From IMG/VR virus record IMGVR_UViG_3300047159_000049: a stretch of DNA of 25,775 nucleotides, one strand, 5' to 3'. This document shows, piece after piece, positions 2,080 through 25,775 of this stretch. Position 1 is the first letter of the stretch. Every line of letters starts with the position of its first letter. The notes under the pieces were generated by a model, which saw only the letters and a program-made list of their open reading frames with translations, did no database searches and was not told the DNA's origin. A program made the position numbers and the translations under genes. The stretch comes from a virus (Duplodnaviria; Heunggongvirae; Uroviricota; Caudoviricetes).

Positions 2080-3506
2080 ATGTCAGTTCAAGAATCATCC
2101 AATCCTGCAGTTGAAGGAAGCGATACGATCTGCTTCCTTGGAGACAGCATCACAGGCGGCCTCAAATCAATAGTATTCTCCAAGCAGGCAAATCGGGTCT
2201 ATTTTCAAGGCGTTGAATCAGCGAAAGCCATGACTCCGTCTGAGCTTGAGTCAATCAATTCAGGCATCATGGTCGATAATCGCAAAGACTTCATGCTGAA
2301 ATGCGAGAAGATCTTCAATTGCCAATATGATCAGTTTTTTCCAATCGTTTATGTGCGGAAGGTACTTCCTGCTTATCAACGGAAGCAACGAGGCGGTTTG
2401 CCTATACAAAACCGAGAATGACGACGTCGCCAAAGAGCTTTGCGGAATCATGGGATTAAGCAAGCGCGAATCCGACGCATTGATCGCCGCGCATGATCAG
2501 CTTGGCCTAAAATCATGCGAAGAAAATCTGTCATACTACGAAAGGAAAGTCGAATCCCGCGGCACTTAAGAGGGCAGTTCTTCTTCATGCCTCAGATCGT
2601 ATCGGTCTTTCTTGCGTATGCGGATCTCGTCAATAAGAAAGAAATCATTTACAGGCAGTATCAGATCAAGAAGCCGAATGGCAAGACAAGAGACATCGTC
2701 GCTCCGCATGAGGAAATCAAAGTTCCTCTTCAGGATCTGAATAAGGTGTTTCAGCGCATCTTCGACAAGACCAACTCCAGCTTCCAGGTAGCGTACAAAG
2801 AGAACAAGAGCATCGTGGACAACGTCGACCCTCATAAGGATAACGACTTCGTCTTCAAGCTTGATTTCCATCACTTCTTCCAAAGCTGCAAGCGTCAGCT
2901 CGTCAGCGACAAGATCAAGTTTCTGTTCGCCAACGCGCCTGATCCTGAAAGAGCCCTAAACAGATTCCTCGATATGATTCTGATCGATGACGCGCTTTTC
3001 ATCGGGTCTCCGATCTCTGGCACTTTGGCCAACGCCATCATCGCCAAGCCGGTCGCCTATATGCGCAATATGTGCGCCAAATGCGGAATGGCCTTCACGG
3101 TCTATGCCGACGACATGACGATGAGCTCCTATAAGTTCATCGTTCCTGACGTCGCGCTCAAGATCTTCCAGAAGGCGTTCATCGTATGCGGATTGGAAAG
3201 CTACTTCACCCTCAATATGGATAAGGTCTATGGATGCACGAAAGACAAGCGTCATGTGACTGGGCTGTCTATCAACGACAAGAACCAGATCACTTGCAAG
3301 CGATCGCTTTACGAAAGCATCCGCCAGAAGGTTTATCTGCTATCCAAAGATCGCAAGATCGAAGGAACGATCGATCAGCTGGCTGGCCAAATCGCATATG
3401 CCGGAAATGTCGATAAGTCAGCAAGATCGAGCGTCTTCTGAAGAAATATCCTGACGTTATGACAAGATACAACTTCAAGATGCCCGAAGCCAAACCCTCC
3501 AAGTGA
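2080..3506 (+). CDS. Retron-like reverse transcriptase with long N-terminal extension (reconstructed ~475 aa across 3 apparent indels)
   Basis: RT core 2650-3420: IKKPNGKTRDIVAP, NVDPH (region X NAxxH-like, 2821-2835), KLDFHHFFQS, GSPISGTLAN, YADD (3103-3114), VTGL (region Y, 3256-3267). The only strong RBS (AGAAAGAAGG) precedes ATG 2080. Frames join via an extra T at 2335-2340, a missing base ~2550 and a missing base ~3420 (continuing KIERLLKKYPDVMTRYNFKMPEAKPSK-stop 3506). The RT call is firm; the N-terminal fusion is inferred. Confidence 0.88.
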
Positions 3507-10932: not shown

Positions 10933-11006
10933 GGGTCTTTAGCTCAACGATAGAGCGCTCGGCCGTTAACCGAACAACAAGCGTCTGACTCGCTTAAGGC
11001 CCGCCA
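10933..11006 (+). tRNA. tRNA-Asn(GTT)
   Basis: GGGTCTT/AAGGCCC, G73; C33; D-loop A19 with T-loop T56 (TCTGACT). Confidence 0.88.
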
Positions 11007-11332: not shown

Positions 11333-11406
11333 GGCCGAGTCGTTCAACGGTAGGACAGACGCCCCATACGCGTCGAACGGAAGTCCAACTCTTCTCTCGG
11401 CTACCA
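11333..11406 (+). tRNA. tRNA-Met/Ile2(CAT)
   Basis: GGCCGAG/CTCGGCT, loop CC-CAT-AC, TCCAACT; Met versus Ile2 cannot be resolved by eye. Confidence 0.85.
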
Positions 11407-11833: not shown

Positions 11834-11908
11834 CCTGGTGTAGCTCAGCGGTAGAGCGATCGGCTGATAACCGATAGGTCGGGAGGCCAGCACTCTCTAC
11901 CAGGACCA
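11834..11908 (+). tRNA. tRNA-Ile(GAT)
   Basis: CCTGGTG/TACCAGG, loop CT-GAT-AA, atypical T-loop GCCAGCA. Confidence 0.87.
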
Positions 11909-12384: not shown

Positions 12385-12409
12385 TTAATTGAAGAAAGGA
12401 GGATGGATC

Positions 12410-12775
12410 ATGACCAAAGTCGTGTCCGTCTGCAGATCGCTATGCAAAGCAAGCGATCAAGCATACTCTGAGCTTCTTGATGAGATAGATCGTGGTGGCA
12501 TCCGCCTTCACGTCGTCGAGTTGAGAAAGCTCAATAGGATGTTTCCGCATCCTATCAAAGGATGGAAGACCACAGGATATCGCTCCATAGATGGCCTGGA
12601 CGTCTACATCGAGAAAACCTCAATGGCCAACTCAGTGCATCTTCTGATGCACGAGCTGACGCATTCAGTTCAGGCGAATTCAGGGTTAGACCTGAGATCG
12701 CCTGGCATAGAAGACGAAGCCGAGAGAATCGGCTTCAGATTCTACAAGAGGTATCAAAGATCGGTTGGCAAATAG
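12410..12775 (+). CDS. Small zinc metallopeptidase-like protein (HEXXH)
   Basis: RBS AGAAAGGAGG; LLMHELTHSVQ followed by EDEAE (third-ligand Glu pattern of ImmA/IrrE-like and related zincins). Confidence 0.7.
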   Translation: MTKVVSVCRSLCKASDQAYSELLDEIDRGGIRLHVVELRKLNRMFPHPIKGWKTTGYRSIDGLDVYIEKTSMANSVHLLMHELTHSVQANSGLDLRSPGIEDEAERIGFRFYKRYQRSVGK

Positions 12776-12827
12776 CTGGCCGATCTTTTTTACGACCGCA
12801 ACAATAGATTATCGGAGGATAGTTGCT

Positions 12828-13145
12828 ATGACATACAACGAAAGATGCGCTAAAATGATCAGCGCCGGATACGATCCGGACAACATAACCTGGGAAGAGG
12901 TCTGCATCCTTGAAGGATGGAATCCTACCGGGGACCCGAAGAAAGACGAGGAAGCCAGAGCTAAGAATGGCGGAAAGCCGGCCCCGATGATCCAGTCGCA
13001 CATCCCCGCCAAAGACAACGCCATCCAAGCCATCAAAAATCAGCTATCAGATCTTGAATACGATTACGCTCATTATCATGTCGGACCTTCAGACTATGCC
13101 GAGAAGAAAGCAGCTCTTCAGACAAAGCTGAATGGATTGAAGTGA
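12828..13145 (+). CDS. Hypothetical protein
   Basis: RBS GGAGGA, ATG 12828, 105 aa. Confidence 0.75.
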   Translation: MTYNERCAKMISAGYDPDNITWEEVCILEGWNPTGDPKKDEEARAKNGGKPAPMIQSHIPAKDNAIQAIKNQLSDLEYDYAHYHVGPSDYAEKKAALQTKLNGLK

Positions 13146-16899: not shown

Positions 16900-16996
16900 A
16901 GTCGGGTATCTCAATGTTTAGAGAGTTCAACTTATAATTGAATGTAAAAGCTGATACAATCAGTGAATGTGGGTTAAAGTCCCGCCCCGACTACCA
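16900..16996 (+). tRNA. tRNA-Ile(TAT) with 26-nt variable region
   Basis: AGTCGGG/CCCGACT, D stem TCTC/GAGA, TTCAA-CTTATAA-TTGAA, V-arm GCTGAT/ATCAGT, T-loop TTAAAGT, CCA. Confidence 0.8.
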
Positions 16997-21567: not shown

Positions 21568-22506
21568 ATGCCAAATCGCAAGATCCAAGCCGGAGTCACT
21601 CCGGATATTTTCAAAAGCAAATATGCCGCGTTCATCAAAAGCCACGCAAATGCTTTAGGTAGCTCCGTTTCTGACATCCAGCAATACAGCAATAACTTCA
21701 CTGATATCAGTTACATGGTGTTCTCATGCTGCGATTTCTTTCAGACTATGAAAGACCTTCAGAAGATCCAATTCGACTTCGAGAACCTCGATATCGGCCG
21801 TCCTGACGGATCAGATAACTGCTCCGTCGAGAGCGCCGCGTTCGAAGACATCGGAGGCACCAACGTTTTATGGGTTACTGCCGGAGGCGATTGGGAATGC
21901 CCGATTGCATTCGTTCTCTATTTCGATGACAAAGACGCGCTTCGCGCATACATCCCGGAAGATGGAAACGTCTATTGCCACCACTGCAAAGCGGCGTATG
22001 GCAACAACAACTGTGACAAATGCACCTTCGATGACATCACCAAAGCAGATATCCAGCGCATATGCCAGGAATGCAATTGCATCTGCAAAGGGACCGAAGA
22101 GTCCATCGAGGATATCAATTGCAACGACACCGCTCTGTCAAATGACGTCCGTGCCCGCCTTGAGATCGTCGATGCGTCTGGCAACGTTACCATTCCGGCT
22201 CAGCTTCCGGTCGCGGCATCAACCCCAGCCCAAGCGACGGCTCAGACTCAGGCTAGCTCCCAGGTGGCTAATCCCGCTCCGGCGCCTGCCCCGGTCGCTG
22301 CTACCAAGATCACGTCTGACCAATTGGCCGCGGCGCTCATCATCAGCGATGCTCTTGACAAGGATCTCATGAACAAGCTCACCGACACCATTGGCGCAAT
22401 CGCCGGCCAGATGAACTTCTACATCCCTCCTGTCAAGGATATCCTCAACGACGATTCCGTCGTCAAGGTCGTCAAGAAGATTCTCGATACGTATCCTTGG
22501 CATTGA
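21568..22506 (+). CDS. Hypothetical protein with Cys-rich segment and Ala/Pro/Gln-rich linker
   Basis: 312 aa; AGGDWECPIAFVLYFD..LRAYIP..GN motif, several CxxC, low-complexity linker. Confidence 0.85.
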   Translation: MPNRKIQAGVTPDIFKSKYAAFIKSHANALGSSVSDIQQYSNNFTDISYMVFSCCDFFQTMKDLQKIQFDFENLDIGRPDGSDNCSVESAAFEDIGGTNVLWVTAGGDWECPIAFVLYFDDKDALRAYIPEDGNVYCHHCKAAYGNNNCDKCTFDDITKADIQRICQECNCICKGTEESIEDINCNDTALSNDVRARLEIVDASGNVTIPAQLPVAASTPAQATAQTQASSQVANPAPAPAPVAATKITSDQLAAALIISDALDKDLMNKLTDTIGAIAGQMNFYIPPVKDILNDDSVVKVVKKILDTYPWH

Positions 22507-22531
22507 TTTAACGCGAAACTCGCTGTATCAT
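22503..22531 (+). promoter_or_regulatory. sigma70/sigmaA-type promoter for the tRNA-Met/ncRNA/tmRNA/tRNA-Leu unit
   Basis: TTGATT-N17-TATCAT with TG extended -10, 7 nt upstream of the tRNA. Confidence 0.7.
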
Positions 22532-22537
22532 AATACA

Positions 22538-22614
22538 AGCGGGTATACGGAACCGGGTATCCTATCAGCCTCATAAGCTGAAAATAGTGGGTTCGACTCT
22601 CACTCCCGCAACCA
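22538..22614 (+). tRNA. tRNA-Met(CAT), initiator-like acceptor end
   Basis: TCAGC-CTCATAA-GCTGA, TTCGACT, 3' CCCGCA-A-CCA with unpaired 1:72 as in fMet; lacks the three G-C anticodon-stem pairs. Confidence 0.82.
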
Positions 22615-22619
22615 ATTTC

Positions 22620-22954
22620 GAATGATTGCATCATCGGCCGGCGATACGGCCGATGGTGGTCAGATTAGGCGCGATTGCCTGCGCCGATATCACAAAGGCA
22701 GGCCGATTCTTGGCGTGATAACCGAGATCAAGCCCCGTGAGAAAACACGGAACGCTGAGTCACAAGGAGCGCTCGTAAAACGGCGTGGACTGGCTCAGAA
22801 AACTCCGCATATGACTGCATCGATGTCCATAAATCAATTATTCGGTTCCATCAAAAACAGCTAGGTGCGCCGGCGACATTCTAGTGCCAAAGGCGTGCTG
22901 AGGCTCTGCGGAAGGGAAACGACGGCGAAGGAAAACACCGCATCAAACCATTCT
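22620..22954 (+). ncRNA. Candidate ~335-nt structured non-coding RNA of unknown family
   Basis: Terminal pairing GAATGATT/AACCATTC, 12-bp hairpin CATCATCGGCCG/CGGCCGATGGTG and several further helices; fills the gap between tRNA-Met and tmRNA. Confidence 0.55.
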
Positions 22955-22959
22955 CTGTC

Positions 22960-23372
22960 GGGCCTGCCCAGGTTTTGACGGAGGCGACCAGATCTTAGTC
23001 GCAGCGGCCCGGTGAGCCTAATACACCAAGCCCAATAATCGCTAACGGTTATCATTATAACTACGGCGCAAGCCGTAGCTATGCCTACGCTGCCTAAGGC
23101 GTAGACCTCAGCTAGTCTGGGGCTCGTCGATCCTGCGGGACCGATGGCACGTCATCCGCGTTGTTTACGTCTCCAACGCGGGGAGTGACGTCACAAAAAG
23201 ACCGACGCTTCCGGTCCCATGGCAAACGGGAACGGAAAACGGTTATCGCCGATTGCTATCACGGCGTCAGTTCCGTTGGCGTAGATGCGCCGTGATTACA
23301 AACGCCAAACAAGCTGTAGTGACTATTTGATGGAACCTTCGGACAGGGGTTCGATTCCCCTCAGGTCCACCA
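22960..23372 (+). ncRNA. ssrA: tmRNA
   Basis: 5' GGGCCTG..GGTTTTGACGG pairs with 3' CAGGTCC-A-CCA (G3.U70); T arm GGGGTTCGATTCCCC; tag frame 23041-23097 ANGYHYNYGASRSYAYAA-stop after AATAATC. Confidence 0.93.
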
Positions 23373-23373
23373 T

Positions 23374-23458
23374 GCGCGAATGGCGAAATGGTATACGCTG
23401 CGGTCTCAGAAGCCGCTGCCCCAAAAGCATGCTGGTTCAACTCCAGTTTCGCGCACCA
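23374..23458 (+). tRNA. tRNA-Leu(CAG)
   Basis: GCGCGAA/TTCGCGC, long variable arm, TTCAACT, CCA. Confidence 0.93.
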
Positions 23459-23468
23459 TGCGTTCGAT

Positions 23469-23498
23469 ATCCCGGACAGCATCCGGGATTTTATTTTT
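23469..23498 (+). terminator. Intrinsic terminator
   Basis: ATCCCGGA-cagca-TCCGGGAT followed by TTTATTTTT. Confidence 0.82.
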
Positions 23499-23529
23499 AT
23501 TTCCCCTCGATTGGGGTGAAAGGACACTT

Positions 23530-24461: not shown

Positions 24462-25775
24462 GTGAGGATAACCAGACTTAAGTTAGTCAATTTCATCGGC
24501 ATCAAGCACGGCATGAACCGAGATGAGGTCGAAATCAATTTCCCTACCGACGGCAAGAATAAGATCACGATGCTGTCTGGCCAGAATGGGTCAGGCAAAT
24601 CGACGATCATGTCTCAGCTGCAGCCGTATAAGGATTCTTTCGATGATCGCAAGGATCTCATCGTCGAGCACAAGGAAGGGCGCAAAGAGATCGACATTCT
24701 AGGAGACGATGGCTGCAGATATACGATTCAGCACATCTATCCAGCCGATCTCAAAGCCACCGGAGGAACGGTGTCATGCTTCATCCAGGAAAACGGCATT
24801 GAGCTCAATCCAAGCGGAACGGTCCGCACGTTCGAAGACGTCATCAAAGACAAATTCGGAATCACCAAAGATTATTTTCAGATCGGCAAAGTCGGGACCA
24901 ATACGCAAAGCTTCATCAATCTGACAACTACCGAGCGGAAGGAGTTCTTCTCAAGGCTCATTCCGTCTGTAGGAAAATACCAAGCGGCATACGTCGAAGC
25001 CGCCGCCAAGTTCAAAGTGTCGAAAGACAGAATCGACGACATCGGAGTTTCGCTCAAGAAGTTTCAGGACCGCAAGGTCTTAGAGGCGTCCATAGCGCAA
25101 TTCAAGCTAGGCATCGACAACGCCGACAAGGCGATCTTGAATTACACCGGAAAGAAAGCCGTTCTTGAAAGCAAGAACGCCGAGCTCTCCGAAGCGATGG
25201 CGAAGATCAACTTCGCCGAATCCTCAGAGAAGCTGCAAAGCGATCTGGAGACTCTCAAGGCATACGCCATAGCCCAGCAGAAATTCGAATCGGATTATCA
25301 CGACATGAGCCTTGACGATTGCGCCGTTAAAGCAACCGGGCTCAGAGCCGACATTTCAAAATCGGAAGCCGATATCAAGATTCAGGAAGCCGCAAAGAAA
25401 ATTCCAACAAACTGATCTCGATGTACCAGAACGACGTCGCCAAGGCTAAGCTGAAGCTCGTCGGAATGGAGACAGGAGATCTTACATCGCTTGACGCCAA
25501 AATCAAGGCGGATGAGAAGAACAAAGCCGACGCCGAGAATCGCGTCGCCGTCAATTTCATGATCCCGACGATCAAGGGACGCGAGAAAGACATCCCGGCG
25601 TATCTCGCAAGATTCGAGGAGTTCATCTCATACTCCGTGTCGCATTACAAAGATCTCAATGAGCACGATATCTCTCCGGCTATGGCCAACGTCGAAGAAT
25701 TCTTCGACGCCGGATTCAAAGACACCATCCAGCATCTTACCAAAGATCGGCGCGATGCGATAGACGGGCGGCAGT
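24462..25775 (+). CDS. SbcC/Rad50/SMC-like ATPase (3'-truncated by window; apparent indel ~25400)
   Basis: MRITRLKLVNF start, Walker A GQNGSGKST, Q-loop-like FQIG, coiled-coil. After an A-run at ~25398-25402 the frame continues NKLISMYQNDVAKAKLK to the window end. Confidence 0.88.

Follow-up and report, generated by a model that had tools for sequence, protein, structure and literature searches.

A 349-nucleotide noncoding interval between the tRNA-Met and tmRNA genes of huge-phage DNA: a possible lineage-specific internal transcribed spacer

What is the nature of a 349-nt interval that separates a tRNA-Met gene from a tmRNA gene in DNA of a huge phage? A sequence-only reading of this locus had proposed that most of the interval is a novel structured ncRNA linked to translation rescue or tRNA maturation, or else the template of a reverse transcriptase (RT). 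We followed up this proposal by computational analysis of the window, meaning the whole 25,775-nt stretch of phage DNA that carries the locus. The account we favor, to which we assign about an even chance of being correct, is that the interval is an internal transcribed spacer within a phage RNA operon, peculiar to this lineage, which would be freed by processing and form ordinary hairpins. It most likely has no conserved, sophisticated structure-dependent function, and at most is likely to be a spacing or processing element or a lineage-specific by-product RNA.

Organization of the locus

The window is huge-phage DNA in which ARAGORN identifies 41 tRNA genes plus the tmRNA gene. Its proteins include a fragment of RNA polymerase beta, a retron-type RT, and an SbcC/SMC-like ATPase, and the 312-aa protein encoded upstream of the spacer has phage-database relatives only in Bacillus phage G and Lak megaphages. 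Huge phages have been described that carry tmRNAs along with large sets of tRNAs (PMC7162821). Three additional Rfam tRNA hits (45 to 52 bits) that were missed by ARAGORN are located in gaps of the arrays, at positions 10933-11003, 11333-11403, and 11834-11905. The features of the locus are as follows.

22503-22531, plus strand: putative sigma-70-like promoter (TTGATT-17-TATCAT), which matches 9 of 12 consensus positions
22539-22610, plus strand: tRNA-Met (CAU), found by ARAGORN and, with a weak score of 39.3 bits, by Rfam
22611-22959, plus strand: noncoding spacer of 349 nt
22960-23372, plus strand: one-piece tmRNA with tag ANGYHYNYGASRSYAYAA, found by ARAGORN and by Rfam (91.7 bits, model positions 1-374)
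23374-23458, plus strand: tRNA-Leu (CAG), found by ARAGORN and Rfam
23469-23499, plus strand: intrinsic-terminator-like hairpin (8 bp) with a T-run after tRNA-Leu, based on a consensus match

The interval is bracketed by tRNA-Met and a full-length tmRNA, and the segment singled out by the sequence-only reading (22620-22954) forms its core. Both tRNA genes and the tmRNA gene are complete according to ARAGORN and Rfam, and a single base separates the 3′ end of the tmRNA from tRNA-Leu(CAG). The tRNA-Met sequence is followed on its 3′ side by AACCA (region 22539-22614) rather than by a clean encoded CCA, and most tRNAs of the arrays differ from it in this respect. Its Rfam alignment shows a gap of one base on the 3′ side of the acceptor stem. 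We also considered the spacer as a part of the tmRNA, in a two-piece or extended form, and rejected this idea because positions 22960-23372 alone span the model from 1 to 374 and include a paired acceptor stem.

The promoter-like site is located ~7 nt upstream of tRNA-Met, and no other plus-strand site of this type was found before position 23516. Judging from these consensus matches, the unit looks like an RNA-only operon composed of the promoter-like site, tRNA-Met, the spacer, tmRNA, tRNA-Leu, and the terminator-like site. No separate promoter-like site was found for the tmRNA, so the spacer would be transcribed as part of a precursor that begins at the site upstream of tRNA-Met and extends through tRNA-Leu to the terminator-like site. 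RNase P generates the 5′ ends of tRNAs and of tmRNA, so release of the spacer would produce a fragment whose 3′ end is position 22959. RNase P cleavage at 22959/22960, which is the tmRNA 5′ end, together with 3′ maturation of tRNA-Met would free the spacer, and the freed RNA would then form a series of unremarkable local hairpins. The position of the interval is thus compatible with the co-transcription and release by processing that had been proposed for it, given the promoter- and terminator-like sites and the established biology of RNase P. We infer these two events, as well as the lack of function.

The spacers of rRNA and tRNA operons are transcribed, are cut out by RNase P and other nucleases, and are poorly conserved, and local hairpins are common in them. 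The interval resembles such spacers in that it lies between mature stable RNAs, but at 349 nt it is unusually long, since the spacers within tRNA arrays of this genome are typically 2 to 8 nt. We count this difference against the reading of the interval as a plain spacer. No cryptic tRNA-like genes were found within it by ARAGORN with introns allowed and thresholds lowered, and the mitochondrial mode of this program returned spurious calls only.

Recurrence in other contigs

At least nine further contigs, each assembled independently (L001-L007, L283, and L284), also carry the spacer, which is 350 nt long in them. Eight of these contigs, derived from different samples (L001-L007 and L283), are identical to the window over this stretch apart from an additional G after position 22851. 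The phage was assembled from the data sets SRR19542532, SRR16379730, SRR35987601, and SRR32022426 and from JGI 3300055294 and 3300053673. The window derives from a 136.8-kb JGI contig, and its SbcC-like gene is also frameshifted relative to the other contigs: the gene is split near position 25415, but an intact protein of 911 aa is encoded by L001. The indels that set this DNA apart from the other contigs may therefore be assembly errors or mark a strain variant, and the source contig may be a defective variant.

Coding potential of the spacer

One alternative is that the spacer encodes a small basic protein of 80 to 87 aa (22622-22864/22885). The candidate reading frame is as follows.

22622-22864, plus strand: ORF of 80 aa with an ATG start (87 aa in other contigs, where it ends at 22885), judged spurious

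This ATG-initiated ORF was called by JGI on some contigs, where it is listed as hypothetical, but gene callers passed over it on most of them. Its codon score, computed as log-odds from the codon usage of genes in the window, is -0.15 bits/codon. Real genes score from +0.03 to +0.61 by this measure, and 60 spurious minus-strand ORFs score -0.17±0.16, such that the ORF resembles the spurious set. Furthermore, each of the six spacer frames has a coding score below zero. The start codon is 12 nt past the tRNA, and neither the 80-aa nor the 87-aa version is preceded by a Shine-Dalgarno sequence. A search of 5.8 billion proteins returned no homolog other than the ORF itself, and no Pfam or PHROG family matches the spacer ORF or pieces of it. 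In addition, the one-base indel relative to other contigs alters the C-terminus of the ORF. The sequence-only reading had pointed to possible translation of this ORF as a concern for its ncRNA proposal; we judge the ORF to be spurious on the basis of its codon usage, the missing Shine-Dalgarno sequence, and the missing homologs. The spacer is noncoding, and we regard the existence of the small protein as extremely unlikely.

Predicted secondary structure

The minimum free energy (MFE) of the spacer is -121.9 kcal/mol, which corresponds to a z-score of -2.78 relative to 100 shuffled sequences. Predicted folding thus exceeds chance weakly, and the modeled z-score is within the background of this genome, in that 5 of 37 equal-sized (350-nt) windows sampled across this DNA have values as low or lower. 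The predicted structural features are as follows.

22619-22844, plus strand: predicted domain 1 (~226 nt), closed by a 10-bp helix formed by 22619-22628 and 22835-22844 (P of 0.87 to 0.98)
22852-22909, plus strand: predicted long irregular hairpin, with a core formed by 22864-22871 and 22892-22899 (P = 1.00)
22921-22959, plus strand: predicted terminal hairpin, weak and with a loop rich in purines, which ends exactly at the tmRNA 5′ end

Within domain 1, the partition function predicts hairpins at 22629-22658, 22668-22685, 22701-22734, 22735-22750, and 22755-22798. Several helices are well defined (P ≥ 0.95), which we also count against the plain-spacer reading.

The complementary segments on which the sequence-only reading had built its model are all present within 1 to 2 nt of the places given for them, but only three of the nine helices it drew are favored in the Boltzmann ensemble. 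The three are the 12-bp hairpin at 22629-22658 (P = 0.996), the GGCGC/GCGCC helix (P = 0.95), and the CCGUG/CACGG helix (P = 0.98). The helix proposed to join the 5′ and 3′ ends (GAAUGAUU/AACCAUUC) forms seven of eight pairs with one A·C mismatch and has a mean pair probability of ~0.002. Enforcing it costs +5.9 kcal/mol, and the predicted partner of the 5′ end is 22835-22844 (10 bp, P = 0.98). Four other proposed helices (AUCAC/GUGAU, CGCU/AGCG, UGGAC/GUCCA, and UGCGG/CCGCA) each have P ≤ 0.003. The suggested loop pseudoknot also has P ≤ 0.003, a value produced by an algorithm that is blind to pseudoknots; by our own estimate, finding a complement of 6 nt for a loop in an interval of this size (349 nt) is close to the chance expectation.

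One of the five low-scoring segments, at 12601-12950, is a run of near-perfect hairpins that closely follows the large tRNA array and is predicted to fold far more strongly than the spacer (MFE of -133 kcal/mol, z-score of -8.3 to -8.9, the former from 100 shuffles). This region overlaps ORFs at 12389-12775 and 12765-13145 and contains, at 12751-12793, a hairpin of the terminator type; Rfam gave no match for it.

Comparison with known RNAs

Only tRNA and tmRNA were matched at the Rfam gathering score, and a cmscan search of positions 22480-23000 at E ≤ 10 yielded nothing credible for the spacer. These negative results cover RNase P, 6S, SRP, GOLLD, ROOL, group I and group II introns, small ribozymes, and retron msr. 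The resemblance to RNase P RNA that had been suggested earlier was based on a similar length, a multi-helix architecture, and the supposed closing helix, but the same inspection had noted that the conserved GAGGAAAGUCC motif is absent from the spacer. No RNase P model matches even at E ≤ 10, including the bacterial A and B, archaeal, and other models, and the P1-like end helix has a P of ~0.002. RNase P RNA was rejected as a candidate.

Similarly, we found no support for the idea that the spacer is an RT template. Retron ncRNAs are encoded beside their RT. The RT in the window (2515-3441) is of the retron type and is 19 kb upstream of the spacer, from which it is separated by tRNA arrays and more than 15 genes, and the idea lacks support for this reason; in addition, no Rfam msr model matches. 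This RT is recognized by PADLOC as RT_II-A (5e-44) and by the NCBIfam model for the retron St85 RT (6e-46), the latter under the curated cutoff. The coding score of an ORF upstream of the RT (2080-2421, 113 aa) is near zero, and this region might hold an msr-msd RNA instead.

GOLLD and ROOL RNAs are large ncRNAs that are often located beside tRNAs in phages or prophages (PMC5737381). The spacer occupies a setting of this type, flanked by tRNA-Met on one side and by tmRNA and tRNA-Leu on the other. However, neither Rfam model matches the spacer even at E ≤ 10, and both RNAs are much larger than 349 nt (ROOL averages 581 nt). Moreover, GOLLD and ROOL are defined by extensive covariation across phyla, whereas the spacer has no detected homolog.

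Distribution among related phages

No spacer homolog beyond the strain level was found by either sequence or covariance-model searches. A blastn search of INPHARED phage records yielded none, and neither did exact 26-mer searches of IMG/VR and of GTDB genomes. Comparisons with the corresponding loci of relatives using blastn, nhmmer, and tblastx were also negative (best tblastx E = 0.78), as were BLAST and covariance-model searches (model R1, positions 22629-22798) of five whole IMG/VR relatives and 15 loci. The ~240 loci that share the tmRNA 3′ end have no spacer homolog upstream, matches in 401 Lachnospiraceae genomes were at chance level, and a metagenome scan with a tRNA-Met 24-mer recovered one unrelated contig. 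The flanking proteins offered no further route, because the 295-aa protein has no relatives; the best relatives of the 312-aa protein are in other gene contexts. On the strength of these sequence comparisons, the spacer is specific to this phage lineage. The absence of homologs may also reflect sparse sampling, and the tmRNA locus of the sister phage falls outside the recovered contigs.

Relatives were gathered via the downstream SbcC-like (SMC_N) protein. This search identified one sister phage with 66% identity (contigs from SRR26425198, SRR26424701, and JGI 3300053673 and 3300055294), and the rest of the protein cloud has at most 41% identity. The recovered contigs of the sister phage include neither a tmRNA nor the spacer, its gene order around the locus differs, and the order is not conserved among relatives. 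Three distant relatives carry a tmRNA (G001, G004, and L288), and none of them has a comparable noncoding stretch upstream of it. Rather, the tmRNA is directly preceded by a tRNA or by a short gap, and the larger gaps are occupied by ORFs, several of which encode Pfam domains. In G001 (L022), a tRNA is located 5 nt upstream of the tmRNA, and gaps of ~340 nt in its tRNA array are occupied by HPr-like (PF00381) and YqeY-like (PF09424) genes. A PD-(D/E)XK endonuclease gene lies upstream of and beside the tmRNA in G004 (L021), and L288 has a 104-aa ORF followed by a 94-nt gap. Likewise, a GIY-YIG gene is present within the tRNA cluster of the sister phage (L010).

These arrangements raise the possibility that the spacer is the remnant of a decayed gene or mobile element, such as a homing endonuclease or a small accessory gene, that was inserted between tRNA-Met and tmRNA and is transcribed as junk. 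The genes held at such sites by the relatives and the unstable gene order, evident even in the sister phage, are consistent with this explanation. However, the spacer has no translated similarity to the loci of these relatives, the ORF pieces give no Pfam or PHROG signal, and all six frames score negatively. We therefore consider a remnant unlikely.

Variation between strains

A single variant strain (L284) has 97.3% identity over 4.8 kb. Its spacer carries 3 substitutions in 349 nt (0.86%), compared with 3 in the tmRNA (0.74%) and 0 in tRNA-Met. Divergence in the upstream genes is ~2.7%, with pS = 0.064 and pN = 0.019, and ~22 substitutions would be expected in the spacer from this pS value versus the 3 seen. 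Spacer divergence is thus near that of the tmRNA and well under the pS of the upstream genes, which we count as a further point against the plain-spacer reading. Divergence between the strains is patchy, and a sliding-window control revealed that 21% of coding windows of 349 nt have 3 or fewer substitutions. Consequently, although the spacer appears conserved relative to synonymous sites, significant conservation was rejected on the basis of this control.

The three changes were also compared with the predicted fold. The change at 22812 is in a loop, U>C at 22866 converts a G·U pair to G-C, and C>U at 22953 converts a G-C pair to G·U. All three fit the predicted structure, which is suggestive but weak; about half of the transitions in helices keep pairing. 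This one 97%-identical strain provides 2 one-sided changes that preserve pairs and 0 compensatory changes.

Potential pairing between spacer and tmRNA

Positions 22844-22855 of the spacer are complementary at 12 of 12 positions to 23326-23337, which lies in the 3′ strand of the body of the tmRNA. The MFE structure of the precursor pairs the 3′ third of the spacer with this body; it contains 66 spacer-tmRNA pairs and has a ΔΔG of -13.2 kcal/mol compared to the separate folds. The spacer might be a cis-acting leader that, by pairing with the tmRNA while both are still in the precursor, delays or controls how the tmRNA body folds and matures. Despite the perfect 12-mer and the energetic gain, shuffled spacers perform nearly as well: they give -7.8±3.4 kcal/mol, 8% match the observed ΔΔG (p ~0.08), and 12% reach at least 66 inter-domain pairs. 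Also, the extra G present in other contigs breaks the 12-mer, and by our own estimate shorter complementarities between spacer and tmRNA occur at about chance level. A leader of this kind is highly improbable in our assessment.

Possible roles of a released spacer RNA

Non-tRNA RNA segments are also found within the tRNA transcription unit of phage T4. These are the species I and II RNAs, which at ~120 to 140 nt are shorter than the spacer. To our knowledge, their function is still unknown, and we know of no reason to expect that the spacer is related to them in sequence. They derive from the 1.75-kb tRNA precursor of this phage (PMC2330249). Species I and II are proven stable products, whereas the spacer RNA is predicted from sequence and has a tmRNA as its neighbor.

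By analogy with these RNAs, the spacer could be a functional, lineage-specific stable ncRNA that matures from the tRNA/tmRNA precursor and acts in trans during infection. It could affect translation rescue or tRNA maturation, for example, or act on a target in the host. The RNA-only operon setting and the noncoding nature of the interval are in agreement with such a role, as are the well-defined predicted hairpins, the structure-compatible strain substitutions, and a divergence as low as that of the tmRNA and under pS. Precedents exist in the T4 RNAs and in the tRNA-adjacent GOLLD and ROOL RNAs of phages. In opposition to this evidence, no homolog was found and hence no covariation, the z-score is no outlier, conservation is not significant empirically, and the spacer is absent from the distant relatives that carry a tmRNA. 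We consider a stable trans-acting ncRNA to be the main rival explanation, although not a probable one.

A more specific proposal is that the spacer represents the first member of an unsampled class of phage RNAs that mature with phage tmRNA and work with or on trans-translation, which we view as very unlikely. Examples would include an RNA that titrates SmpB or alanyl-tRNA synthetase, or one that tunes the timing of phage tmRNA activation, and these are given the same low standing. If true, this proposal would explain both the retention of the spacer between tRNA-Met and tmRNA and its slow, tmRNA-like evolution, and a dedicated RNA partner matured from one transcript with a phage tmRNA would open a new approach to how phages control ribosome rescue. 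The suggested link to translation rescue is an argument from position.

Nothing in these results points to a conserved, specially folded RNA, and the putative internal transcribed spacer is a weak lead rather than a discovery. As an orphan that has no family, no covariation, and an unexceptional folding energy, it is worth listing in a catalog of candidates. The useful result is a negative one: the interval is not RNase P-like, a protein gene, a known RNA, or a retron template, and the end-paired fold is not favored.

Additional observations on the RNA genes and the host

A 97-nt tRNA-Ile(UAU) at 16900-16996 has a long additional segment that follows its anticodon arm. This tRNA is kept in the sister phage (L010, 3722-3817), where the extra segment has changes. 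The last 35 nt of the tmRNA (23338-23372) are identical to the tmRNA of a Lachnospiraceae metagenome-assembled genome (MAG), and a distant phage relative was binned with a Waltera intestinalis MAG (loci compared for these two observations: L106, L063, and L288). As a weak hint from sequence, the hosts may be gut Lachnospiraceae.
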